Source: Gemmatimonadota bacterium (GTDB taxonomy: Bacteria; Gemmatimonadota; Gemmatimonadetes; Gemmatimonadales; GWC2-71-9). Taken from it: a DNA stretch of 64,000 bases. Every line of letters starts with the position of its first letter. The stretch's first letter is position 1. Where the stretch lies: positions 32,001 to 96,000 of the forward strand of contig JBDHAB010000010.1 of NCBI GenBank assembly GCA_039588295.1, in the 5' to 3' direction. Shown piece after piece: positions 45,349 to 63,053 of this stretch. The translations under genes were made by a program, and so were the position numbers. Below the pieces are notes generated by a model that searched no databases, was not told the DNA's origin, and was given only the letters and a program-made list of their open reading frames with translations.

Positions 45349-45447
45349 CCCACATCGCGGTCTGCCCACTCACAGCACGAGGTTCCGCGGCGCCGGATCG
45401 ACGCTTTGTCTGAGCCTCACCAGGACACGAGCCCCACATCGGTGCGT

Positions 45448-48400
45448 ATGGCGAATCGAACGAACTCACTCGAGTGGAAGCCGGCGATCTGCGGGATCTG
45501 CCCAGCAGGCTGCTGGGTCGAAGTTGGTATGGACAATGGGACCCTCGCCGATATCCGGCCCGATACGGGCCACCCGCTCGGCATGATCTGCCGCCGCGGG
45601 CAGCACGCCCCGGAGATCGTCCATTCCGAACATCGACTCCGTTACCCCATGAAGCGCAAGGGTCCGAAGGGCACGCACGAGTTCGAGCGCATCGACTGGG
45701 ACGAGGCGTACGACGTGATTGTCGAGAACCTCAACCGCATCAAGCGGGAATCGGGCCCGGAGGCCGTTGCGGTCTACACGGGCCGTGGCGCGTTCGAGCT
45801 GTCGCTGTGCGACATGTTCCAGCCAAAGGATGTCGCGGTGTCGTCGGCTTCCAATGTGCTGTTCCCCTTCGGTTCCCCAAACACGATGGGGGTCGGCGCG
45901 TTGTGCTACGTGTCGTTCGCGATGCTCGCACCCCACCTCACCATGGGACGCATGCTCGTCAACATGTTCACCGACATGGAGTCGGCCGAACTGTTGGTGG
46001 TTTGGGGAGCCAACCCCGCCACGGACTCGCCGCCCCTGGACATGGCCCGACTCGAGGCGGCAGCCAAGCGTGGCGCCCAGATCGTCGTCATCGATCCTCG
46101 ACGAACCGAGACCGTGGCCCGCACCAACGCACAGTGGATACCGATCCGGCCTGGGACAGATGGCGCGCTGGCCTTGAGTATGATCGAGGTGCTCATTGAT
46201 GACGACCTGTACGACGAGGAGTTCACGGATCGTTGGTGCCACGGATTCGACGAGCTCCGTCGCTACGTCCAGCACTTCACGCCCGAAGTCGCGCAGACCA
46301 TCACCGGGGTCTCCGCCGAGACCATTCGCGACCTCGCGCGTCGAATTGGGCGGGCGACGGGTGCGTGTCCCGTCATGTACACCGGCCTCGAGTATTCCAA
46401 CAGCGGCGTGCAGGCCATCCGCGCGGTCCTCACGCTCTTTGCACTGAGCGGGCACCTGGACGTCCCCGGCGGGATCGGCTTGGCAATGCGTGACACGCAC
46501 TTCCCCGTGAACCGCTCATGCAATCAACCCAACCCCGACCTCGACCGCGCGGTGGCTCGAGACCGATACCCCATCTACAGCAACTATCGCGGAGAGTCGC
46601 ACGCGAGCGGACTCGTGACGTCCGTGCTCGAAGGGGAACCCTACCGCATACGCGGGCTCTTGATTCACGGTGCGTCGATCCTCACCTCCTGGCCACAGAC
46701 ATCCATGTGGCGCGAGACGCTCAGTGCACTTGACTTCGTCGTGTGCATCGACCGTCAGCTCACCGCAGACGCCGCGTACGCCGACGTCGTGCTGCCGGCC
46801 ACGACGATGTTTGAGATCGATTCGTACATGGTGTACGGACCCATCTTTCGGCTGAGGGAGAAGGTCGTTGCACCGGTCGGAGAAGCGCGCAACGACTATC
46901 TGATCATGGCCGAGTTGGCGAACCGCCTGGGATACGGACACCTCTATCCACAGACTGAGGACGAACTCGTTCGGGCGGCACTCGACGGATCGGGCTACAC
47001 GTTGGAGGACGTCCGCGCCGCCGGTGGCTGGGTGAAGCTCGCCACTCCGATGATGGAGTACAAGAAGTGGGAGAAAGGCGGACTTCGCGCGGACGGGGCA
47101 CCCGGGTTCGAGACACCCACCGGGAAGTTCGAGATCTGGTCGTCGGTGCTCGAGGACTATGGCTACGAGCCGCTACCCAAATACACCGAGCCGACCGAAG
47201 GACCCATCGCGCAGCCCGAACTCCTCGAGCAATACCCCCTCGTATTCAACTCGGGCGCCCGACCACACACGGACTTTCGTTCACAGCATCACGGCATTCG
47301 CGGTCTGGTGCAGGACAATCCGGAGCCGACGGTCGAGCTCAGCGTCCAGGATGCCGAGGCGCGCGGGATCACACATGGTGATCTCGTCGAAGTTCGCACG
47401 CAACGCGCGAGCGTACCATTCCGCGCCCGTGTCACGGACGACATCGTCCAGGGGGCCGTCGAATGCAACATGGGCGGCGGCACGCCCGTCGGTCCCCAGG
47501 CGTGGAACGAGTGGAACGTCAATGAGCTCACCGATCTCCACAACGCGGACGAGGTATCGGGCTTCCCCGTCTACAAGGCGCTGCTGTGTGACGTGGTGAA
47601 GGTGGCAGACGGCCACGGGAACGGAAGTCCAACTGATGGCATGGCCGCTGCGTGTGGACCCACGGTGCTCGAGAACGTAGTTCCGCGGAAGCCTCCCGAG
47701 CGGCGCATCTATCTCGACAACAACGCGACCACCGAGGTGAGCGAGGCCGTGCGGCTCGCCATGGCGCCGTTCCTGGAAGGCGTGCACGGCAATCCCTCCA
47801 GCATCCACGGCGCCGGCCGGGACGCCCGCGCCGGGATCGAGACGGCACGTCGTCAAGTGGCGCGCCTGCTCAACGCTCGCCCCCGCCGCATCATCTTCAC
47901 CGGTGGCGGCTCGGAGGCCGACAACCTCGCGATCAAAGGCATCGCGTTCGCGCGGCGGGAATCCGGGAAACACATCGTGACGAGCGCCATCGAGCATCCC
48001 GCCGTGTTGCAGGCCTGCAGATTCTTGGAAACGCTAGGCTACGATGTCACCTACTGCCCAGTGGATGAATTCGGGCTCGTCCATCCGGACACGCTGCACC
48101 AGGCGCTTCGATCCGATACCATCCTGGTGTCGATCATGATGGCGAACAACGAAGTCGGTACCATTCAGCCCATCAAAGAGCTGTCCGCGATCGCGCACGA
48201 CCGCGGAGTCCCGTTTCACACAGATGCGGTCCAGGCCGCCGGCAAGATACCCATCGACGTCGCGGAGCTTGATGTCGACATGTTGTGCGTTTCGGGCCAC
48301 AAGTTTCACGGGCCGAAGGGCGTGGGTGCGCTCTACGTGAAGAAGGAGATCGAGCTCACCCCGCTCATTCACGGTGGCAAGCAGGAGGGGGGTGTCCGAG

Positions 48401-48858
48401 CGGGCACCGAGAACGTCCCGGCCATCGTGGGCATGGGCAAGGCTGCGGAGCTCGCGCTCGCCGGCCTGCGAGATGCTCCAGCGGTCGCGGACCTGCGAGA
48501 CCGGCTGCAGCACGAGATCCAGCTCCTCATTCCCAATGCAGTGGTAAACGGTGCAGTCGGGATGCGCCTGCCCAACACCCTGAACGTGACCCTGCCGGGT
48601 CTACGGGGAGAGTCCCTGGTCGTGGCTCTCGATCAACATGGGGTGTCACTTTCGTCGGGCTCGGCCTGCAAGTCAGGCTCGCCGGAGCCAACACACGTGC
48701 TCATCGCGATGGGGAAAGACGTCGAAGACGTGCACTGCGCCGTCCGGATGTCGCTGTCGCGCGAGACGACCGAATCGGACATCGCCGCCACGGCGGCCGC
48801 GCTGAGCCAGGTGCTGGAAGAAATGGAGACCACGGTCCGCTTTCTGCCCTGCAAATAG
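45448..48858 (+). CDS. DMSO-reductase-family Mo/W-bisPGD oxidoreductase fused to a C-terminal IscS/NifS cysteine desulfurase
   Basis: Fe4S4 site CGICPAGC...MICRRG; RLRYPMKR, WGANP, VIDPRRT, IRPGTDGAL, ADVVLPA, TPTGKFE. From ~47700: IYLDNNATT, GNPSSIH, FTGGGSEADN, ANNEVG, HTDAVQ, SGHKFHGPKG, RAGTEN, SSGSACKS. Single open frame. Confidence 0.9.
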   Translation: MANRTNSLEWKPAICGICPAGCWVEVGMDNGTLADIRPDTGHPLGMICRRGQHAPEIVHSEHRLRYPMKRKGPKGTHEFERIDWDEAYDVIVENLNRIKRESGPEAVAVYTGRGAFELSLCDMFQPKDVAVSSASNVLFPFGSPNTMGVGALCYVSFAMLAPHLTMGRMLVNMFTDMESAELLVVWGANPATDSPPLDMARLEAAAKRGAQIVVIDPRRTETVARTNAQWIPIRPGTDGALALSMIEVLIDDDLYDEEFTDRWCHGFDELRRYVQHFTPEVAQTITGVSAETIRDLARRIGRATGACPVMYTGLEYSNSGVQAIRAVLTLFALSGHLDVPGGIGLAMRDTHFPVNRSCNQPNPDLDRAVARDRYPIYSNYRGESHASGLVTSVLEGEPYRIRGLLIHGASILTSWPQTSMWRETLSALDFVVCIDRQLTADAAYADVVLPATTMFEIDSYMVYGPIFRLREKVVAPVGEARNDYLIMAELANRLGYGHLYPQTEDELVRAALDGSGYTLEDVRAAGGWVKLATPMMEYKKWEKGGLRADGAPGFETPTGKFEIWSSVLEDYGYEPLPKYTEPTEGPIAQPELLEQYPLVFNSGARPHTDFRSQHHGIRGLVQDNPEPTVELSVQDAEARGITHGDLVEVRTQRASVPFRARVTDDIVQGAVECNMGGGTPVGPQAWNEWNVNELTDLHNADEVSGFPVYKALLCDVVKVADGHGNGSPTDGMAAACGPTVLENVVPRKPPERRIYLDNNATTEVSEAVRLAMAPFLEGVHGNPSSIHGAGRDARAGIETARRQVARLLNARPRRIIFTGGGSEADNLAIKGIAFARRESGKHIVTSAIEHPAVLQACRFLETLGYDVTYCPVDEFGLVHPDTLHQALRSDTILVSIMMANNEVGTIQPIKELSAIAHDRGVPFHTDAVQAAGKIPIDVAELDVDMLCVSGHKFHGPKGVGALYVKKEIELTPLIHGGKQEGGVRAGTENVPAIVGMGKAAELALAGLRDAPAVADLRDRLQHEIQLLIPNAVVNGAVGMRLPNTLNVTLPGLRGESLVVALDQHGVSLSSGSACKSGSPEPTHVLIAMGKDVEDVHCAVRMSLSRETTESDIAATAAALSQVLEEMETTVRFLPCK

Positions 48859-52815: not shown

Positions 52816-54762
52816 CTAGGTGGTTCGACTGCGGTGTACGTGGAGTACCAGCAACCCCATGATCAGACCGATGGTCGCGAGAGCGAGTATCTGCTGACCG
52901 GCATCGGGGAGGGCGACCGGGAACCCGCGAATGGGCTCCCCACCGCGGGCACCGACCCAGAGCGCCAGGAGCACGCCGGTGAGACCGCCACCGCCGACGA
53001 GCCCTGATCCGAACAGCACCCCCTCTTCGCGCCGGCGTTCGGCCTCCTCGGGCGCCTGGTTTCTCGTCAGGGTCCAGCGCAGGAGACCTCCGACGAACAC
53101 TGCGGCCATCGTGGAGAGCGGGAGATAGACGCCGACGGCGAAGGCCAAGACCGGGATGCGGAAGAGCGATGCGACGAGCCCGATTCCCACCCCGATGAAG
53201 ATCATCGCCCACGGCAGGTTCTGATCCAGCACGCCGTCGATGACCAACTTCATCAGGACAGCTTGCGGCGCGGGAAGCTCGGTCCCGCCGAGTCCGCCAG
53301 GCACGCTCTGGTGCAGCATCGTCACCACGAGGCAGACGACGCCGGCCGACGTCACCACACCGATCAACTCACCGATCTGTTGGAACCGTGGTGTCGCACC
53401 GAGCACGAAGCCGGTCTTGAGATCCTGGGAGGTATCGCCCGCAATGGACGAGGCGATGCACACAGAGGTGCCGACCATCAGTGCCGTGGCCTTGCCCGCG
53501 AGATCGGTCCATCCCATGAGAAAGAACACGAGACTGGTGCCCAGCAGGGTGGCGATGGTCATTCCCGATGTCGGATTCGAGGTGACGCCGACGAGACCGA
53601 CGATCCGCGAGCTCACAGTGACGAAAAAGAACGCAAAGACCGCGATCAACACAGACGCGACGGCCCTCACCAAGACGGAGTCGAGAAAGCCTAGAACCCC
53701 GGGAACGAGCGTGAGCAGCAGCAGCACTGTCGCAAGCCACACGAGCACGGTCTTGAACGACAGGTCGCGATCCGTCCGTTCGACGGCGGCCCCGATGCCG
53801 GAGGTGAGCTGGCCGAGCCCGAGCTTGAACGACTCGATCATCGTGGGAATCGACCGGATGAGCGTGATGATCCCACCGGTCGCCACCGCACCGGCGCCGA
53901 TATAGCGCACGTAGCGATGCCAAATGTCCCCCGGAGCCATGTCCCGGATCAGTTGCTCCGTCTCCGGGTAGAGCGGCGCGGTCAAATTCGCTCCCCAGAG
54001 ATTGATCAATGGGATGATCACGAATGCGGACAGAGCGCCCCCGGCCACCATCACCGTGGCGATCCGGATCCCCAGGATGTATCCCACACCGATCAGTGGC
54101 GGCGACACGCTGATGGCGAGGTTTGCCTTGAAGCCAAGCGCGAGCTGAAACGTGCCCTGCACGAACTTGAAGCCGTCGGTGATCAGCTTGAACAGCATCC
54201 CGACGCCGAGACCCCAGAACACACCCGCCGCTTGTCGGCCGCCACCCTCGGCCGCCACCAACACCTCGGCGCACGCCATGCCCTCCGGATAGGGGAGCCG
54301 GCCGTGCTCGCCCTTGATCAGATACCGGCGCAGCGGAATCATGAACAACACGCCGATCAAGCCGCCCGCCATCGTGAGCAGCGTGATCTGCCGCCACGCC
54401 GGCGCCATCCCCCAGATGAACAACGCGGGAATCGTGAACAGCACACCCGACGCGACCGATGAGCTCGCCGACCCGACCGTCTGAGACATGTTGCTCTCGA
54501 GGATGGTGTGGCGGAGCCCAAAGGCCTCGAACAGCCGAAACGCCACCACGGTCAAGACGGCGACCGGGATCGAGGTACTGATGGTCAGTCCCGCCTTGAG
54601 TCCCAGATAGGTGTTGGCCGCACCGAACACGACACCAAGGAGAATACCAGCGACCGCCGATTTGACCGTGAATTCGGCGAGCGTCAGTCCGTACGTGTAC
54701 GGGACGTGCTGCTCGCCGGGCTTGAGCTCGTAGGCGGTCGGGGGGAGTTTCTTGCCGTTCAT
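52816..54762 (-). CDS. OPT family oligopeptide transporter
   Basis: NTYLGLKAGLTISTSIP, ESNMSQT, LPYPEG, SNPTSGM, GDTSQDLKTG, LPAPQA. Confidence 0.93.
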   Translation of the reverse strand: MNGKKLPPTAYELKPGEQHVPYTYGLTLAEFTVKSAVAGILLGVVFGAANTYLGLKAGLTISTSIPVAVLTVVAFRLFEAFGLRHTILESNMSQTVGSASSSVASGVLFTIPALFIWGMAPAWRQITLLTMAGGLIGVLFMIPLRRYLIKGEHGRLPYPEGMACAEVLVAAEGGGRQAAGVFWGLGVGMLFKLITDGFKFVQGTFQLALGFKANLAISVSPPLIGVGYILGIRIATVMVAGGALSAFVIIPLINLWGANLTAPLYPETEQLIRDMAPGDIWHRYVRYIGAGAVATGGIITLIRSIPTMIESFKLGLGQLTSGIGAAVERTDRDLSFKTVLVWLATVLLLLTLVPGVLGFLDSVLVRAVASVLIAVFAFFFVTVSSRIVGLVGVTSNPTSGMTIATLLGTSLVFFLMGWTDLAGKATALMVGTSVCIASSIAGDTSQDLKTGFVLGATPRFQQIGELIGVVTSAGVVCLVVTMLHQSVPGGLGGTELPAPQAVLMKLVIDGVLDQNLPWAMIFIGVGIGLVASLFRIPVLAFAVGVYLPLSTMAAVFVGGLLRWTLTRNQAPEEAERRREEGVLFGSGLVGGGGLTGVLLALWVGARGGEPIRGFPVALPDAGQQILALATIGLIMGLLVLHVHRSRTT

Positions 54763-54877
54763 CGGTGTGATCCTTTGCGCGGCGACCGAGAGTCCGGCGA
54801 ATCTTCACCCGGATGCGCTGCTTCGCAACCGTCACGGACGACCCTCACCGCCGCTCCAGGTGTATCATTAGGACCCT

Positions 54878-55594
54878 ATGATCGCGGTTTTTGTCCAATC
54901 GGGCCTGGCTGAGGCGGTGCAGCATCAGCCGCTGCTGGCGCTGGCCTCTCTGTTCGGCGCCGGAGTGCTCACGAGCCTGACGCCCTGCATCTACCCGATG
55001 ATCCCGATCACGGCGGGCGTGCTGGCGGCGAGCGCCGGACCCGATCGCTCCCGGAGGCGGGTCGTGGGACTCACCCTCACCTACGTCTCCGGTCTCGCGC
55101 TGCTGTACGCGTTCCTCGGAATGCTGGCAGGCCTCACGGGATCCTTGTTCGGCACGGTTTCGGCCAGTCCATGGGCGCGGTTCGCGATCGGGAACCTTCT
55201 GCTGCTCTTCGCCCTTGCCATGTTGGACGTCTTTCCGGTCTCTGCACCGCGGCGGCTGGTCGCGTGGGCTGGCAACCTGGGCGGCGGCTCGTACCCCGCG
55301 GTATTCCTGCTGGGAGCGACGTCCGGGATCGTGGCGGCACCGTGCGGAGCTCCGGCATTTGCCGTGGTGCTCACCTGGGTGGCGGCGACGGGAAGCGCGG
55401 TGCTTGGGTTCGTCTACCTGTTCGTCTTCTCGATTGGGATGACCACACTGCTGGTGGTCGTCGGGCTGTTCTCGGGAACGCTCGCGGCGCTGCCGCAACA
55501 AGGGAAGTGGATGGTGTGGATCAAGAAGGCGGCAGGTGTGGTCATGCTCGCTATGGCGGAATACTACTTCATCCTCATGGGGCAAGTGTTGTGA
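54878..55594 (+). CDS. ccdA: CcdA/DsbD-beta transmembrane thiol-disulfide electron transporter
   Basis: SLTPCIYPMIP and AAPCGAP catalytic cysteines; G.WM..IKK..G. Confidence 0.88.
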   Translation: MIAVFVQSGLAEAVQHQPLLALASLFGAGVLTSLTPCIYPMIPITAGVLAASAGPDRSRRRVVGLTLTYVSGLALLYAFLGMLAGLTGSLFGTVSASPWARFAIGNLLLLFALAMLDVFPVSAPRRLVAWAGNLGGGSYPAVFLLGATSGIVAAPCGAPAFAVVLTWVAATGSAVLGFVYLFVFSIGMTTLLVVVGLFSGTLAALPQQGKWMVWIKKAAGVVMLAMAEYYFILMGQVL

Positions 55595-56118
55595 CGTCAC
55601 AGAAGTTCAACGTGTGGTTCGGCACGATGGTCTTCACGGCGGCGATGTTGACCGGGTCGACCGCGTTGCACGCCCAGGCGCAGAACGCCGTGGGAATTCC
55701 GGTCGGCAGTACGCCGCCGGCAGTCGAAATCGAGGACTTGGACGGCAACACCGTGTCGTTGGATCGCTGGAGCGGACGGCGACCGGTTCTTCTCGAGTTC
55801 TGGGCGACCTGGTGTCCGGTGTGTGCCAAGCTGCAACCGGAAATCGACGCCGCGCACGAGCGGTTCGGCGATCAGGTAGAGTTTGTCGTCGTGGGGGTTG
55901 CAGTGAATCAGACCAAGCGATCCGTCAGACGACATCTCGAGCGGCATTCCCTGACCTTTACCGTCTTGTGGGACACGAAAGGGCGGGCCACGCGGGCGTT
56001 CAAGGCACCGACCACATCGTATGTCGTGATTCTGGATGCGGACGGCACGGTGGCATACACTGGCGTGGGCGCCGATCAAGATCTCCAAGGGGCGCTTGCG
56101 CGCATGCTCGACGAGTAG
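55591..56118 (+). CDS. TlpA-family exported thioredoxin-like disulfide reductase
   Basis: GTG start overlapping the ccdA stop (GTGA); signal peptide; LEFWATWCPVC. Confidence 0.88.
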   Translation: MTSQKFNVWFGTMVFTAAMLTGSTALHAQAQNAVGIPVGSTPPAVEIEDLDGNTVSLDRWSGRRPVLLEFWATWCPVCAKLQPEIDAAHERFGDQVEFVVVGVAVNQTKRSVRRHLERHSLTFTVLWDTKGRATRAFKAPTTSYVVILDADGTVAYTGVGADQDLQGALARMLDE

Positions 56119-56127
56119 CCTAGCGGC

Positions 56128-56724
56128 TCACCCCTCTGGAGCCTCCTCCTGTGGCGCGACTCGGTCGATAGCGTCCTCCAGTTCGTCATACGCTGTTGGA
56201 TCGATCTCCCGAAACGGCGCGGCGACGTAGGCGATACGACCCTCCGGCGTCACCACGAACAAGGTACGGTTGTCGAGCGGGCCGCTGGGCCGATCGACGA
56301 ACGCACCGAACTTCTGACCAACAACCGCCCCAACGTCACTCCCCAACAGGAACGGAAACTCGTCGTCCCGTGCCCACGAGGCGAGCGCCTCCGGGCCATC
56401 GGTGCTGATGGCGATGAGGACCACGTCTCGCCCGTTGCGGAACAGCTTCGCGTACTGATCACGGTACGCGTGCAGTTGGATCGTTCAGCCACCGCTCCGT
56501 GCGCGGAAGAAGAAGGCCAGCACGACTGTCTTCCCCCGAAAATCACTCAACGTGATCGGATCACGCAGTACGCCGTAGCGAGTGGCGCCCGGAATCTCGA
56601 AGTCGGGTGCCGGAGCACCTACCGCGAGCGGGATGGACACACGACGTTCCTGTCCGCCGGCGGTCGGTGCGGCCATCATCGCACCGATTCCGAGCACGAC
56701 GAGGCTCATAGCTGTTCGGGTCAC
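56128..56724 (-). CDS. Exported peroxiredoxin (BCP/AhpC-TSA-like) selenoprotein, Sec encoded by in-frame TGA at 56485-56487
   Basis: GTG start with GGAG RBS and signal peptide. VGAPAPDF...LSDFRGKTVVLAFFFRARSGG-TGA-TIQLHAYRDQY...AISTD...FPFLLGSD...NRTLFVV joins track ORFs 56485..56784 and 56128..56424 in one frame. Confidence 0.85.
56449..56470 (-). promoter_or_regulatory. Candidate bacterial SECIS element
   Basis: mRNA CGCGUAC-CGUGAUCA-GUACGCG: perfect 7-bp stem starting 14 nt after the UGA; the loop starts 21 nt after the UGA and has GU at loop positions 2-3. Confidence 0.7.
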
Positions 56725-56818
56725 ACGGCACTCCTGTGAAGAGACACGACTCCTGTGGGATGCGCAGTATAGCGGTCGGATCATGAGCGGCGCCAGCTGC
56801 CGCGGGCCCCGCCAGGCA

Positions 56819-58384
56819 CTACTTCAACAACTCGCGAATCTCACGCCGTGCCGCCAGCTCCGCATCGATCTGCTCCCCGATCTCGCGCGCCCGCTCCAGG
56901 TCGGTCGTGAGATCCTCCATGGTAGCAACACCTGCCTGCACACGGAGCAGGCCCAGGCGTACGTTCTCGAGTGCCGCCACGGCGGTCTGGAGCCTCTCAC
57001 CCGTCTCGCCTCGCCGCCTCAACAACTCGGCGTCCTGTTCGAGCCGGCGTATCACCTTCGGCACGTCAGTGAGGCGCTGCCGCATTTCGCCGGGAAGCGC
57101 CTCGTACACGTCGACGGCGGCCCGGCCCAACACCAGTTCCGTCGCGTCCGTAGAGGGCAGGGCGCGCCGCTTCGGGGGGCGAACGCCGAACCCCGCCACC
57201 CGGAAGAACGTTCGGCCGAACCAGCCGGCCCACAAGCGATTCCACAGGCCGTTGACGCGTCGCATGAACTTCCCCGACCCCACCGCTTCCGCCTCTTCCT
57301 CGAGCGATTCCGCTTCGGCAAGCAATGCCGCGCGAATGTCGTCGAACGAGTAGCCCACTCTCAGCATACGGCGCGCCACGGCAATCAACTGAATGAGCAG
57401 CGCGAGCAGAATGAAGTTCATGAGTCCCGAGGCGCCCTCGGCCCGCTGCGACACCATTGCCGCCGTAATGAACACCGCCGTCGTCACCTCGGCGTTCCGC
57501 AGGAAGCTGCGTATCAGGGGCGGCGCTCTGAGTTCCCGACCACGGAGCTGACCAATCGATTCCGCCAACGCCTCGCCGGTGGGGAACCGCGCGGACGGTT
57601 CCTTCTCGAGACACCGACCGATCGCCTCGGAGAGTTTGGCTGGCACCTCCTTCCGCAGCGACACTACGGCCGGCGCCGGCTCCGCTACGTGCTTGGCCAG
57701 CAGCGCCGGCACATTGGCCGCCTCAAACGGTCCGCGACCGGTCAGCGCGAAGAAGGCGGTGGCTCCCAGCGAGTACAGGTCGCTCCGGCCGTCCACCACG
57801 TCCCCGGACGCTTGCTCCGGGCTCATGTATCTCGCAGTCCCGACGACGTGTCCTCCCCTCGCCGGCTCAGCGGCTCGCTGCACCTGCGCGATCCCAAAAT
57901 CAGTCACCAATGCACGACCGGTCGCCTGGTCCAGCATGATGTTGTCCGGCTTAATGTCGCGGTGGACGACCTTCCGCTGGTGGGCGTACGACAGAGCCCA
58001 CGCCACTTCCTGCAGCAGTCGCATCACCTCACGCGGTGACATTGGACCCGCACGGGCCACGCGCTCACGCAGCGTCTCGCCGTCGACGTAGCCCATCACG
58101 AAGAACACGAGATCGCCGTGTTCCTCGACGGTGTGAATCGGAACGATGTTGGGATGGGAGAGCCCGGCGGCCGTCCGCGCCTCCCGCAGGAACCGCTCCC
58201 GACGCTCCGGCGCAGCGGCGAGCTCAGGGGGTAGCAGCTTCAGGGCCACCAGTCGATCGAGCGCCACGTCTCGTGCGAGGAGCACAACCCCCATGCCCCC
58301 TCGCCCCAATTCGCGCTCAATCGAGAATCGTCCCGCAACCGTCTGCTGCAGCGCCAGGAACTCGGGACTGACCGATGCCGTCAT
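56819..58384 (-). CDS. Ser/Thr protein kinase
   Basis: LGRGGMGVV, VALK, HPNIV, HRDIKPDN, VTDFGIA, GTARYMSPE; C-terminal hydrophobic and helical region; GAGGTG RBS before ATG 58384. Confidence 0.92.
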   Translation of the reverse strand: MTASVSPEFLALQQTVAGRFSIERELGRGGMGVVLLARDVALDRLVALKLLPPELAAAPERRERFLREARTAAGLSHPNIVPIHTVEEHGDLVFFVMGYVDGETLRERVARAGPMSPREVMRLLQEVAWALSYAHQRKVVHRDIKPDNIMLDQATGRALVTDFGIAQVQRAAEPARGGHVVGTARYMSPEQASGDVVDGRSDLYSLGATAFFALTGRGPFEAANVPALLAKHVAEPAPAVVSLRKEVPAKLSEAIGRCLEKEPSARFPTGEALAESIGQLRGRELRAPPLIRSFLRNAEVTTAVFITAAMVSQRAEGASGLMNFILLALLIQLIAVARRMLRVGYSFDDIRAALLAEAESLEEEAEAVGSGKFMRRVNGLWNRLWAGWFGRTFFRVAGFGVRPPKRRALPSTDATELVLGRAAVDVYEALPGEMRQRLTDVPKVIRRLEQDAELLRRRGETGERLQTAVAALENVRLGLLRVQAGVATMEDLTTDLERAREIGEQIDAELAARREIRELLK

Positions 58385-58394
58385 TCGCGACACC

Positions 58395-59963
58395 TCATTC
58401 ACCATCTGGATGGTCCGGCTGCCGCCCTCGATCCAGCACTATGGCCTCGAGCCGCGCCATAAGATGGGAGAGTCGTTCGAACCGCCGCCGGATTTGTCGC
58501 TGGAACGCCCGACGCACGGCAAGGAAACTCACCCCGAATACACTGAGGCTCGTGCCACCCGCAATGATCGCCGCGACGAGATCGGACGCTCCCGCGCCGT
58601 CCGCAATCGCCCCGGTGATTCCCAGCAGCACGAGTGAGCCGACGGACAGGGGAAGGAGCACGAAGGTCATTGACGTGCGCTCGTTGTCCGAGATTCGAAT
58701 CCGCGTCTTGTCGCCGGCCGGACTGATGAACACCTGCGCGGCCCGTCCGGTTCCCTTGGACGCGGAACTCCAGACCAATGACGTCCCGAGTGTCTCGTTG
58801 AGTTGGCCCATCTCCCCCAACGATACGCGGATTTCCTCGAGCAGTGAGGCGTAGTCGACTGGGGTGACCTTGGCGTCCACGAACCGTTGGAGGTCGAGCT
58901 GCGGGGAGACGCCAAACACGCCGCCCGGAACCGGGCCCTCGTGCCCAACCTCCAACGCTTTGGCTGCGGCCGCAACTTCGTCGGGCGGGATGCCCGCTTC
59001 AGCGGCCGCCCGCTGGATGCCGGCTAGAGACATCGCCTCATCTTCATCAGTGAGCTTGCTCCCATCGGACTCCGCCGCGCGCGCGAGGATCGCACGCGCC
59101 TGGGTGGAGCCAAATCGCTCCCCCCCCTGGAGACCTCGTGCCATGGCGCTGGCAAAGTCCCCGGGGCTGGCAAACCGGAGCTCCCGGCGCAGCGCTAGCG
59201 CCTTGACCAGCACCTGCTCGAGTCCCCCAGGCAACCGGTCCAGCCGCTCACGATGCTGCGGCGGCACATCGGCAAACCGTCCCAGCTTGACGGCTTCGTC
59301 CGGCAGCCACATTCCGGGGGTCTCTCCGATGAGCATCTCGTACGCAACGCACGCGAGACTGAAGACGTCGGTCGTGGCGTCCAGCCCCGCACGCCCCGCC
59401 GCTTGCTCCGGGCTCATGTATCCTGGCGTCCCAATGGGAAACCCAGACTGTGTCAACTGGGCGCCGCCAGCGGACACGAGTGCCTTGGCAATACCGAAAT
59501 CGGTGACCACGGCGTGGCCTTCGGAAAACAGGATGTTCTCCGGTTTGACGTCCCGATGAACCACACCTCGCCGGTGCGCGTAGTCGAGCGCGTCCGCGAC
59601 CTCCTGCACGACCGGCAGCGTGTGGCGTGCGTCCATCACCTTCTCCCGGTTAAGGCGCCTGCGGAGCGACTCACCCTCGACAAAGGGCATCACAAAGAAC
59701 AGAAAGCCCACCGCCTCTCCCGAATCGATCAGCGTCAGGATGTGTGGATGATTGAGTTGGGCGACGAGCTGGATCTCGTGAAGAAACCGCTCGCTCCCCA
59801 CACTGGCGGCGAGTTCAGGATGCAACACCTTGACGGCCACGGACCGCCCGTGTTTCCCATCGTGCGCGAGGTAGACCGTCGCCATCCCGCCACGCCCCAG
59901 CACCCGCTCGAGCTCATACCGATCCGCGATCGCAGCCTTCAGAGCCTCGGAGAAATCCTCCAT
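58395..59963 (-). CDS. Ser/Thr protein kinase with C-terminal TM helices
   Basis: LGRGGMATVY, AVK, HRDVKPEN, DFGIA, GTPGYMSPE; helical LAGIQRAAAEAGIP segment and two C-terminal TMs. Confidence 0.92.
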   Translation of the reverse strand: MEDFSEALKAAIADRYELERVLGRGGMATVYLAHDGKHGRSVAVKVLHPELAASVGSERFLHEIQLVAQLNHPHILTLIDSGEAVGFLFFVMPFVEGESLRRRLNREKVMDARHTLPVVQEVADALDYAHRRGVVHRDVKPENILFSEGHAVVTDFGIAKALVSAGGAQLTQSGFPIGTPGYMSPEQAAGRAGLDATTDVFSLACVAYEMLIGETPGMWLPDEAVKLGRFADVPPQHRERLDRLPGGLEQVLVKALALRRELRFASPGDFASAMARGLQGGERFGSTQARAILARAAESDGSKLTDEDEAMSLAGIQRAAAEAGIPPDEVAAAAKALEVGHEGPVPGGVFGVSPQLDLQRFVDAKVTPVDYASLLEEIRVSLGEMGQLNETLGTSLVWSSASKGTGRAAQVFISPAGDKTRIRISDNERTSMTFVLLPLSVGSLVLLGITGAIADGAGASDLVAAIIAGGTSLSVFGVSFLAVRRAFQRQIRRRFERLSHLMARLEAIVLDRGRQPDHPDGE

Positions 59964-60088
59964 GGCTCGTAAGCTACCGGGGCACCGGCGAGACACACCA
60001 GATGTGTCCTCCGGCGCACCCCCATTTGGGCCCAGCCCCCACCCAGTCAGGCGGCTGGACTGCGAGTCCTAGCGCACGGGAGCCAAAA

Positions 60089-60105
60089 CCGATAAGATTT
60101 ATCGG
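60089..60105. promoter_or_regulatory. Perfect inverted repeat CCGATAA-GAT-TTATCGG between the divergent kinase and globin genes
   Basis: 7-bp arms with a 3-bp spacer in an AT-rich patch, 24 nt before the globin ATG. Confidence 0.45.
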
Positions 60106-60129
60106 ATTAATCAGGCCCGATACCCAGCA

Positions 60130-60561
60130 ATGCCAAAGCCTCCCGTCCAGCCCCAAGTGTCGGCAGCAGCGATCGAAGCAGCGCAGGCGAGCTTCGCGCG
60201 CTGTAACGCCGAACCGGAGTTCTACGAGAGTTTCTACCGGAACTTCTTCAGGAAGTGCCCGCGGGCGGAGCCAATGTTCGAGAACACCGACTTCCGCCGG
60301 CAGCACCGGTTACTGCGGCATGCGATCGGGATGCTCCTCATCTTCCCAAATCAGACCGAGGCGGACCTTGGCTTGCTGATCCGAGTCGCGGAGCGGCACA
60401 GCCGACGCGACCTCGATGTGGATGCGTCCTTCTACCCCCTGTTCGTCGACGCCCTGGTCGATACTGTGCGAACGTATGACCCGTACTTCACTCGCGATAT
60501 CGGCCACGCGTGGCGTGCCGTCCTGGCGCCCGGCGTTGAGTACATGATCTCCAGGTACTGA
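60130..60561 (+). CDS. Single-domain globin
   Basis: FYESFY (B10 Tyr), PMF (CD1 Phe), TDFRRQ (E7 Gln), AERHSR (F8 His), YPLFVDAL, AWRAVL. Confidence 0.82.
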   Translation: MPKPPVQPQVSAAAIEAAQASFARCNAEPEFYESFYRNFFRKCPRAEPMFENTDFRRQHRLLRHAIGMLLIFPNQTEADLGLLIRVAERHSRRDLDVDASFYPLFVDALVDTVRTYDPYFTRDIGHAWRAVLAPGVEYMISRY

Positions 60562-60608
60562 GGCGGCAACCACGATGTCGCTTCGCACCTTCCGGATTCG
60601 TCGGCCTC

Positions 60609-63053
60609 ATGGGCTCGTGTAGCCGCTGTGGAGTCGGCCTACCTGCGGACGCGCATTTCTGCATCCGATGCGGCGCGTTGGCGACCGTCCATCAGAGCGA
60701 TGCCGAGACACAGCGCATCGCGGTAGAGACGACCTCCCAGGGCACCCTGCTCGACGCGCTACGCCGGGCAACGCTCGGGGAGTACGAGGTCCTGGGTGAA
60801 ATCGGCCAAGGTGGGATGGCAGTGGTGTTCCTGGCACACGACATCGCCCTGGACCGCAAAGTCGCGATCAAGGTCATCTCGCCCGCCCTGCTGATGATGG
60901 ATGCCGGGATTCACGAGCGGTTCCTGCGGGAGGCTCGTACCTCGGCTTCCCTCAGCCACCCTCACATCATCCCGGTGTATGCGGTGAAGCGAGAGAGGGA
61001 CCTCGTGTACTTCGTCATGAAGTATGTCGTGGGACGCAATCTCGAGTCGGTCATGCAGCAAGTCGGGTCGATGCCCATTGCCATTGTTCAGACGATCCTG
61101 AACCAGGTCGGTGGTGCGCTCGGGTATGCGCACCGGCGTGGGGTCATCCACCGCGACATCAAGCCGGCCAATCTCATGCTGGACGAGGACGGGTGGGCCG
61201 TGGTCACCGACTTTGGCATCGCGAAGGTCACCGAGGAGAAGGCGCTGACGATGACCGGCGGCACCGTCGGCACGCCGGCGTACATGAGCCCGGAGCAGTG
61301 CGCAGGCACGGAGATTACCGGGGCGGCCGACCAGTACTCGTTGGGGGTGGTCTCCTACGAGATGATCTCCGGGCACAAGCCGTTTGCCGGAGAGTCGGCG
61401 ATGACGCTCATGTACGAGCATTGTCACGCCGAGCCCACGCCGATTCAGGAGTATCGGCGGGATTGCCCGTCGGAGATCGCGGATGCCATCATGCGAATGC
61501 TGGCGAAATCGCCGGCCGACCGGTGGCCCAGCGTCGAGGACGCGATCGCGGCCATCGGTGAGGCCAGCGACACCGGTCAGCGGACCAGCATTCGCACCAA
61601 GATGCTGGGGCTCGCTAAGGATCCGGAAGCCCAGGCACTGCTCCAGAAGTTCAGCACCCCGCGCACCCCAGTTCCGCGACGTAGTGCTCGCACGGACGAC
61701 GATGACGCCACCGCTGGGGCCTCGTCGGCGGCGCCGTCGCGCACGCGCTTCTTCCTGTGGGGCATCCCCGTCGCGACCGCAGCGCTCGCGGCGACGGTGT
61801 TCGTGATTCAAGGAGGGAATTCGGACGAGCCGGTCTCCCGACCGGAGGCTCTGGCCGCGGTAGCGAGCGACACCGGCTCAATGCCCGGCGGGGTTGCCAG
61901 CCTCGAGATTCTCCCGTACCCGGAGTCGCTGGCCGTCGGCGAGGCGTTTCAGCTCCAGACCGTCGGCAGGGACGCCAGCGGCAATACGCTCGAGGATCTC
62001 GGCATCGTCTGGGAGTCCGGCAATCCCGCCGTTGCGACGGTCTCTCCCCAGGGCGTGGTGACCGCATCGGGTGCGGGGCTCGCGGAGCTCACGGCACGCT
62101 ACGACACGCAGTCCGTCACCGTCACGTTACGAGCGGTTGCAGCCCCAATCGCACCCACTCCACCCACTGCCGCGCCCGCACGAAGCCGGCCGCCGCCCGT
62201 CGCAACACTCGAGCTCCCCCGCGGCACCCGGGAGGCACTGGTCGGAGATCGGTTTCAGCTGCGGGTGGTCGTGCGGGATCCGTCTGGCAGGGAGCTCGCC
62301 GGCCGGCCGATCAGGTGGTCCTCCGACCGACCTGCGGTCGCAACCGTGGACCAGGGAGGATCCGTCACCGCCCTCAGGGAAGGTTTGGTCACGATCACCG
62401 CCTCCAGCGAGGGTCGGTCGGCAGCCGCCGTCGTCTCCGTGGCACCGCTTCAGGCCGCGTCTCTCTCGCTGTCACCGGATAATCGGACCATCACGGTGGG
62501 CGAGACACTCCAACTGTCCGCGACACCGCAGGACGATCGCGGCAACCCGATGACCGGACAGTCCGTGTCCTGGACGTCGAGCCATCCGAATGCGCTGCAA
62601 GTCTCTCCGACCGGTCTCGTGGCCGCGGTTGCCCCTGGGTCGGCCACGGTAACGGCCCAGACAGGGCGTGCCTCCGCGAGCGTGCGGGTTGTGGTCGCGG
62701 CGCCGGTTACCGCCCCCCCAACGGACCCGCCCGAGGATCCGCAACCGGCCATCGAGGCGGTCCTGGAGAGCTACCGCCGAGCGATCGAATCGCGCGATCT
62801 GTCTCAGCTCCGCCGCGCCTATCCTGGCATGACTGCGGAGCAGGAGCGCGCGTTCCGCAACTTCTTCGCGAACGTTTCACAACTCGTCGCTCGCCTCACC
62901 ATCGTCGAGCTCCAAATCTCGGGTGATACAGCTCGGGCCCAGGTGGAGGCGACCTACGAGTTTCGGACGAGCAGGACAGAGACCCAGGACTTCGCATTTG
63001 TCGCAACGCTGGAGCGGGGGCGCACCGGCTGGCAACTCGTGGAAGTCCGCTGA
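60609..63053 (+). CDS. Membrane Ser/Thr kinase with N-terminal zinc ribbon, three Big_2 Ig-like domains and an NTF2-like C-terminus
   Basis: CSRC...FCIRCG; IGQGGMAVV, HRDIKPAN, DFG, GTPAYMSPE; TM FFLWGIPV; three WxSxxPxVAxV..xG.V.A...G repeats; C-terminal IEAVLESYRRAIE...GWQL. Confidence 0.9.
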   Translation: MGSCSRCGVGLPADAHFCIRCGALATVHQSDAETQRIAVETTSQGTLLDALRRATLGEYEVLGEIGQGGMAVVFLAHDIALDRKVAIKVISPALLMMDAGIHERFLREARTSASLSHPHIIPVYAVKRERDLVYFVMKYVVGRNLESVMQQVGSMPIAIVQTILNQVGGALGYAHRRGVIHRDIKPANLMLDEDGWAVVTDFGIAKVTEEKALTMTGGTVGTPAYMSPEQCAGTEITGAADQYSLGVVSYEMISGHKPFAGESAMTLMYEHCHAEPTPIQEYRRDCPSEIADAIMRMLAKSPADRWPSVEDAIAAIGEASDTGQRTSIRTKMLGLAKDPEAQALLQKFSTPRTPVPRRSARTDDDDATAGASSAAPSRTRFFLWGIPVATAALAATVFVIQGGNSDEPVSRPEALAAVASDTGSMPGGVASLEILPYPESLAVGEAFQLQTVGRDASGNTLEDLGIVWESGNPAVATVSPQGVVTASGAGLAELTARYDTQSVTVTLRAVAAPIAPTPPTAAPARSRPPPVATLELPRGTREALVGDRFQLRVVVRDPSGRELAGRPIRWSSDRPAVATVDQGGSVTALREGLVTITASSEGRSAAAVVSVAPLQAASLSLSPDNRTITVGETLQLSATPQDDRGNPMTGQSVSWTSSHPNALQVSPTGLVAAVAPGSATVTAQTGRASASVRVVVAAPVTAPPTDPPEDPQPAIEAVLESYRRAIESRDLSQLRRAYPGMTAEQERAFRNFFANVSQLVARLTIVELQISGDTARAQVEATYEFRTSRTETQDFAFVATLERGRTGWQLVEVR

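Follow-up and report, generated by a model that had tools for sequence, protein, structure and literature searches.

An exported selenocysteine peroxiredoxin candidate of Gemmatimonadota, with an active-site proline replaced in most selenium forms and kept in the cysteine forms

An open reading frame interrupted by a stop codon at the very position of its catalytic residue may be a broken gene, or an intact one in which the stop is read as selenocysteine (Sec). The question is raised here by a locus on the minus strand of a 64,000-nucleotide stretch of a Gemmatimonadota genome (the window), where an ORF track gives two fragments, 56485..56784 and 56128..56424. As the initial annotation had claimed, the two share one frame and the 60 nt between them hold no stop. 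Translation of the minus strand from 56724 to 56128 gives 198 codons, from a GTG start to a terminal TGA, with one internal TGA at codon 80 (56487–56485). An AGGAG resembling a Shine-Dalgarno sequence and possibly acting as one lies 6 nt upstream of the GTG (56731..56735, minus strand), within a 9-nt direct repeat present in two copies upstream of the start codon (window 56731–56758); a search for promoter-like sites and terminators near the gene ends found none. For the reasons given below, the gene at 56724..56128 is almost certainly a single intact gene with a recoded UGA.

Its product belongs to a known kind of enzyme. Residues 35–166 match Pfam AhpC-TSA (E 3e-23), the top fold matches of the structure model (pLDDT 89) are BCP and AhpE, and profile and model together place the protein in the peroxiredoxin variant of the thioredoxin fold. 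The best matches by both sequence and structure are BCP/PrxQ enzymes (Sulfolobus Bcp4 3hjp, 2ywn; Aeropyrum 2cx3) and AhpE of Mycobacterium tuberculosis (1xvw), with TM scores of 0.77–0.78 on the query and 25–32% identity. Aligned to these structures, U80 (56485..56487, minus strand) falls on the peroxidatic cysteine, a placement also borne out by the homologues and the model, and Ser77 (56494..56496, minus) on the Thr/Ser of the motif. The downstream arginine of NRTLFV, said earlier to be intact, is Arg153 (56266..56268, minus), which aligns with the catalytic arginine and is invariant, as R128 of the mature chain, in a 97-row alignment. Where the proline of PxxxT/SxxC is expected, alignment to 2ywn, 2cx3 and 3hjp puts Phe73 (56506..56508, minus), the sequence around codon 80 reading FFFRARSGG-U-TIQ. 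The Thr/Ser and the peroxidatic Cys/Sec in helix alpha-2 and the catalytic arginine of a canonical peroxiredoxin are thus in place by alignment and model, and its proline is not; the Cys orthologues carry the complete motif. Judged from these residues, the protein is a variant that should work like a peroxiredoxin and not a motif-complete member. It contains no cysteine at all, hence no resolving one. Its scores stay below the NCBIfam equivalog cut-offs (PrxU NF040737, 44.6 against 270 bits; BCP NF006960, 54.8 against 140; PrxQ NF053650, 32.2 against 260), which five Cys homologues miss as well.

Homologous loci were gathered from a sequence search (the 80 closest) and from sampled genomes (100); with the window locus they numbered 181, of which three duplicates were dropped to leave 178 distinct loci. 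The catalytic codon is TGA in 131 and Cys in 46, so that the proposed check of this column returns Cys or TGA at 177 of 178 genomic loci; the remaining one (L168 in G064), an exported and distant paralog, has Asp in place of the catalytic residue. All but three of the 80 closest loci are labelled Gemmatimonadota, the others being one Chloroflexi and two unclassified. Within the phylum, 259 of 301 sampled genomes (the unpublished G155 counted in) have a match at E ≤1e-20, and at least 182 of the 301 one with an internal TGA, by a hand count among the matches listed with the catalytic codon checked in part. No relative was found in viral contigs. In public protein sets the family is broken into fragments (e.g. 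UCF39719.1), with C-terminal halves making up 26 of the 120 best matches, and what is restored here is apparently a phylum-wide envelope antioxidant gene that databases hold in two pieces.

The hairpin proposed as a bacterial SECIS element spans 56470–56449 on the minus strand and begins 14 nt past the UGA, with a perfect 7-bp stem and an 8-nt loop, CGUGAUCA, which carries GU at positions 2–3 and begins 21 nt past the UGA. The bSECIS model, in the available text of a 2026 review (PMC13188914), has a loop of 3–9 nt with G in its first two positions, a spacing of 16–37 nt, a stem of 4–16 bp and a minimum free energy of at most -7.5; the hairpin has 8 nt, G at position 2, 21 nt, 7 bp and -13.1 kcal/mol in a local fold. 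Taken alone, the 88-nt fold after the UGA is no better than shuffles (z 0.30), but under the spacing and G rules a hairpin of at least 7 bp follows only 71 of 5719 random TGA triplets of the genome (1.2%). Conservation strengthens the case. All 131 Sec forms have the six inner stem pairs intact as Watson-Crick pairs, and none of the 46 Cys forms does. The stem is encoded by six codons, the rare CGT and GAT included, which are identical in 124 of the 131; codon use in the rest of these genes predicts a share of 0.005. At the closing pair, Watson-Crick pairing is seen in 105 of 131 (C-G 47, U-A 38, G-C 19 and one more), as compared with a mean of 41 and a maximum of 58 in a shuffle that ignores relatedness; all other stem positions are invariant and so offer no covariation. 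Although 76 of the Sec loci were found by peptide patterns, one of which overlaps the hairpin, the 54 retrieved by whole-protein searches have the same stem. The conservation of the element across homologues is far beyond chance, and the earlier description of a perfect hairpin with a GU-containing loop can be extended to one that is conserved and covaries at its closing pair. An Rfam search of 54500–57200 gave no relevant family and a single chance snoRNA match, and a two-sequence consensus fold added nothing.

The means to decode such a codon are at hand. At 96% completeness, the genome yields matches above cut-off for selA, selB and selD together with a single tRNA-Sec(UCA), which answers the suggestion that selA, selB, selC and selD be looked for; its selD itself carries an in-frame TGA, and beyond the gene at 56724..56128 at least six redox genes of the genome do. 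A de novo genome-wide scan for TGA and hairpin returned 484 candidates, too noisy for a selenoproteome, and family searches used in its place brought out five further redox genes in which TGA stands where a Cys of catalytic appearance would be; three of the 11 AhpC-TSA matches (besides the gene at 56724..56128) and two of the three AhpD-like matches are TGA-bearing. In a survey of 80 genomes, selected so as to cover many Cys forms and related among themselves so that the counts are not independent, selA is present in 53, and every one of the 37 genomes with a TGA form is among these; in the other 27 no selB match passes the cut-off either, and no TGA form occurs. The same division runs within genera: in g30, G188 has selA and the Sec form, and G124 and G145 have neither selA nor Sec but the Cys form, while g44 sets three selA-positive Sec genomes against three selA-negative Cys genomes.

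Taken together, these observations leave little doubt, as far as sequence comparison can decide, that UGA80 is decoded as selenocysteine. A nonsense mutation or sequencing error in a broken gene might have been suspected, given that no near-identical contig from another run, among the DNA contigs searched, spans the TGA codon and that databases hold fragments. That reading is refuted by conservation and retains a negligible probability: the same TGA occurs at 131 loci throughout the phylum, both halves of the gene are conserved, and the hairpin is kept at synonymous sites and tracks selA and selB. Contigs of two relatives, from two studies, also bridge the TGA without a listed difference. Scarcely more credible is a UGA read as Trp or Cys through another genetic code or a suppressor tRNA, since this gene and 41 of the 131 Sec forms also end in a genuine TGA stop, and the sole UCA tRNA found is tRNA-Sec. 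The two database proteins with Trp at the site that would speak for it, P0013 and P0092, come from contigs of about 1 kb and cluster with 83-residue members ending at the TGA, and their Trp is likely a read-through by the gene caller. Three other database proteins (P0010, P0022 and P0149) have Leu at the Sec position with an aromatic at -7 and the hairpin-coded peptide intact, which may reflect mutation, error or a calling artefact.

The proline of the motif, reported earlier as replaced by Phe, is missing from 121 of the 131 Sec forms. At residue -7 these have Phe (74), Tyr (42), Pro (10), Ile (2), Val (2) or His (1), which makes 116 of the 121 replacements Phe or Tyr; all 46 Cys forms, 16 of them distant paralogs, have Pro. 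A stricter statement, that every Sec form lacks Pro (79 of 79 at first), was overturned when wider sampling gave the ten Sec/Pro forms. Among full-length database Cys proteins Pro is present in 89 of 90, the exception being P0038, with Tyr, from a three-member cluster, whose own DNA a metagenome scan did not retrieve. A wider profile search, in which 52 of 147 rows had no readable motif, found Pro in 76 of 81 Cys rows with one and other residues in five, their DNA unseen; six of its seven fragments ending just before the catalytic codon are non-Pro. In the metagenome scan all 31 close relatives combine TGA with Phe or Tyr, and 45 distant Cys peroxiredoxins keep Pro. Four unrelated Sec peroxiredoxins from that scan, and a paralog on contig C5 of the genome itself, keep Pro too; together with the ten Sec/Pro forms, they indicate that Sec does not require the loss of proline. 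The codons at -7 vary, so that the constraint bears on the amino acid and not on the codon. By these comparisons the proline change presents itself as a family-wide trait tied to the Sec state.

How often the two changed together was approached with a codon-aligned DNA tree that masks residues -8 to +13 and covers 105 of the 178 loci; its bootstrap is not fully settled. It holds all ten Sec/Pro rows, 36 of 46 Cys/Pro rows and 59 of 121 non-Pro Sec rows (thinned at 74% identity), and leaves out ten distant Cys/Pro paralogs and the Asp row. On five starred branches a non-Pro Sec form is sister to Cys/Pro forms (L052/L092, L173/L115+L118, L186/L114, L110/L117 and L171/L112), and L084 sits within a starred clade of 45 rows made up of 42 non-Pro Sec and three Cys/Pro forms, with zero Sec/Pro rows. 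Across 13 independent Sec-versus-Cys pairs on starred branches, proline changes the same way in a mean of 9.7 and the opposite way in none (sign test p ~0.002), and a single clade for all non-Pro Sec rows is rejected (p-AU 2e-6). A four-state likelihood test favours dependence with a likelihood ratio of 65, its p value being only indicative with two rates at their bound and the Cys/non-Pro state missing from the tree. A masked protein tree of 272 rows, with five supported independent pairs, gave 3.5 the same way and none opposite, which is not significant (p 0.125). Sec/Cys and proline have thus switched together on at least five well-supported branches, probably through repeated Sec-to-Cys reversions.

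Such a coupling likely has a biochemical cause, and the reading in which it does not is rather improbable. The latter would invoke block exchange with Cys/Pro paralogs, or Pro-bearing Sec ancestors followed by independent losses of Pro. It draws on the proximity of the Pro-site and catalytic codons, 21 nt apart, on the coexistence of Cys/Pro paralogs in some genomes, on the existence of the ten Sec/Pro forms, and on the closest pair being less alike in the motif window (0.83) than in the stretch behind it (0.94). That same pair, L052/L092, 82% identical, nevertheless differs by TTC to CCC and TGA to TGC with its hairpin broken and has the same three codons directly behind the Pro site, a pattern more readily explained by point changes than by block exchange. 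A further objection is the clade in which three Cys/Pro rows lie among 42 non-Pro Sec rows and no Sec/Pro row. In genus g50, three tandem pairs of Sec/Pro and Cys/Pro paralogs were observed (L127/L128, L133/L134 and L144/L145, in G228, G202 and G083).

As to the direction of the switches, it is implausible that one 18-nt hairpin core arose independently time after time, and one gain of Sec followed by many returns to Cys is the simpler reading. Among reverted genomes, G124, G145, G171 and G109 are also without selA and selB, and G027 and G046 still have them; the rare CGT codon is retained in three of the 46 Cys forms. On the tree, regain of proline appears well supported inside clades without Sec/Pro rows, and less so in the clade that holds them. 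A 2006 survey counted, for peroxiredoxins, five Cys-to-Sec and zero Sec-to-Cys events in the text available to us (PMC1794560), and the available text of the 2026 review describes Sec-to-Cys changes as rare and mostly confined to FdhA and SelD (PMC13188914). The present data suggest that such reversions are not rare in this exported Gemmatimonadota family.

An envelope location of the enzyme is suggested by its N-terminus. The signal peptide proposed in the initial annotation would correspond to residues 1–24 (56653..56724, minus strand), a segment of hydropathy 2.6 and no twin-arginine, with cleavage judged by eye to fall before Gln25. Tested by hydropathy, 168 of the 172 homologous loci whose open frame is long enough have a hydrophobic N-terminal segment, where a control region gives 5 of 172; among full-length database proteins the segment occurs in 88 of 94. 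On this pattern, export is highly probable. The lack of a resolving cysteine also extends over the family, Cys after the catalytic residue being absent at 177 of 178 loci and in 94 of 94 full-length proteins. Convergent with the gene on the plus strand lie a TlpA/ResA-like exported thioredoxin with a WCPVC motif (55594..56118, with a provisional start), a candidate electron donor, and upstream of it a CcdA-type (DsbD_TM) membrane electron transporter (54878..55594). Among the 80 closest loci tlpA adjoins 65 and ccdA 64, the pair stands downstream and convergent at 64 and either gene at 65, and contig ends account for two or three of the misses. In another 40 hand-picked loci, examined over flanks of about 2.5 kb, a tlpA neighbour was found for 4 of 14 Sec forms and 8 of 12 distant Cys paralogs, and for none of the 14 close Cys forms; in this sample the ccdA-tlpA site tends to hold some exported peroxiredoxin, and not every family member is linked to it. 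The genes are convergent and do not form one operon. TlpA is a likely candidate for the reductant, with about an even chance of being the right one. An envelope chain of membrane transporter, TlpA and PrxQ has a precedent in ScsB-TlpA-PprX of Caulobacter, as the accessible text describes it (PMC3322552), and caution in assuming that TlpA suffices comes from MsrB, where thioredoxin failed to reduce Sec forms devoid of a resolving Cys in the part of that study available (PMC1278935). On the other side, window 56819–63053 holds three Ser/Thr kinase-like ORFs, only the first of which was domain-scanned, and a globin-like ORF (60130–60561); this cluster is common only to the closest relatives.

The account that we consider quite probable is that of an exported Sec peroxiredoxin, recoded by SelB and SECIS and perhaps reduced by TlpA, in which proline is dispensable with Sec. 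SelB, acting on the in-frame hairpin, would recode UGA80; the precursor would leave by the general secretion route and fold as a BCP/PrxQ-AhpE-like peroxiredoxin. In the envelope, a selenolate held by Ser77 and Arg153 would reduce peroxides and become a selenenic acid, peroxidase activity being itself a probable property of the Sec enzyme. With no resolving Cys, an outside thiol would be needed, most likely that of exported TlpA fed by CcdA. Being fully ionised, more nucleophilic and easier to recover after overoxidation, a selenolate may be able to dispense with a proline shield. The shield in question is that of Cys peroxiredoxins, where the proline ring restricts the access of solvent and protects the sulfenic acid according to the available text of PMC3337327; the thiolate-shielding proline could thus give way to Phe or Tyr in most Sec forms, and lineages returned to Cys would carry it again. 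The preference for Phe or Tyr (116 of 121) suggests a positive role of the aromatic as well.

More tentatively, and with somewhat less than an even chance, the Sec form may be mechanistically distinct, the aromatic at -7 being part of a selenium-specific site and Sec plus aromatic and Cys plus Pro being two peaks between which the family toggled at least five times. A ring contact or a backbone NH would then stabilise or trap the oxidised selenium and make a resolving Cys needless. A selenenylamide-type trap is known from glutathione peroxidase work, and its formation here through the backbone NH gained at -7 is speculation. Were the two peaks real, they would provide a natural, replicated test of proline invariance in peroxiredoxins and of the benefit of selenium. 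Yet another reading accepts a real selenoprotein and takes the loss of proline as the mark of a new job, such as a redox relay, a thiol/selenol oxidoreductase or a sensor, instead of peroxide scavenging. It could appeal to descriptions of this proline, in the available texts, as absolutely conserved in peroxiredoxins (PMC3322552) and as a solvent shield (PMC3337327), and to the aromatic nature of 116 of the 121 replacements as a sign of new constraint. We hold it to be improbable, as Thr/Ser, Arg and the fold are retained and single-copy Sec and Cys/Pro orthologues interchange within genera (g30, g44), which suggests the same job, and we keep to the peroxidase.

Among known systems, Sec-containing peroxiredoxins already figure as a catalogued selenoprotein family, to which the texts available ascribe a conserved PxxxTxxU motif (PMC13188914, PMC5029168, PMC1794560). 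The bacterial ones (PF00578, TxxU/PxxxTxxU), with PrxU of Eubacterium acidaminophilum as the prototype, share with the window protein the peroxiredoxin fold, T/SxxU and a UGA with a 3' SECIS, as far as the sources available to us describe them. The window protein differs from the PrxU type by its score far under the PrxU model cut-off, its signal-peptide-like N-terminus, the absence of Cys and the replaced proline, and its family differs from known Sec peroxiredoxins by repeated probable Sec-to-Cys reversions. BCP/PrxQ and 1-Cys AhpE, unlike it, are cytoplasmic Cys enzymes with the proline. PprX of Caulobacter crescentus, in the accessible text (PMC3322552), is a PrxQ-type enzyme exported as the window protein probably is, and it too has a TlpA-like partner with a membrane transporter of the DsbD class close by; in contrast to the window protein, with its Sec, no resolving Cys, a stand-alone CcdA in place of ScsB and a partnership by synteny only, PprX has Cys, keeps PXXXTXXC and a resolving Cys, and is reduced by ScsB via TlpA. 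A precedent for the coupling is found in the available text on Sec and Cys MsrB (PMC1278935), where residues conserved in the Cys form are unneeded in the Sec form and help its Cys mutant; MsrB is another enzyme, with a resolving Cys in its Sec form, and the forms compared there are paralogs, where the present family offers a pair of states toggled repeatedly. The main texts of the 2026 review (PMC13188914), the 2016 survey (PMC5029168) and deep-Sep (PMC12013277), in the parts available, have no mention of a Gemmatimonad, and the literature searched, with supplements and most subscription papers outside it, contained no report of this family or of a Pro-less Sec peroxiredoxin.

Within a known kind of enzyme, the novelty apparent from these comparisons is the Sec-linked replacement of proline and its repeated switching together with Sec and Cys. 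The "absolutely conserved" proline is broken specifically in a selenium background, and nature supplies orthologue pairs, Sec/aromatic against Cys/Pro, with as much as 82% identity, that bear on two long-standing questions, the role of the peroxiredoxin proline and the active-site features that Sec and Cys each need.

The genome holds further candidates. A second, BCP-like Sec peroxiredoxin (L195, C5:77418–77789) has no obvious signal peptide and keeps the motif proline. Two adjacent genes (L194, C9:14489–14890, and L202, C9:13880–14236) have in-frame TGA in UxxC motifs and form a candidate selenoprotein pair, of which one member is Prx-like with a hydrophobic N-terminus and the other presumably deiodinase-like by its motif. 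Two AhpD/CMD-like genes (L203, C5:74835–75017, and L204, C36:38714–38920) show CxxU with hairpins downstream. All of these lie in the genome of the window (G000), where, within the window itself, an ORF of 1150 residues (45406–48858, plus strand) is a fusion of a molybdopterin oxidoreductase (Fdh-alpha/PhsA-like) with a NifS/IscS cysteine desulfurase.
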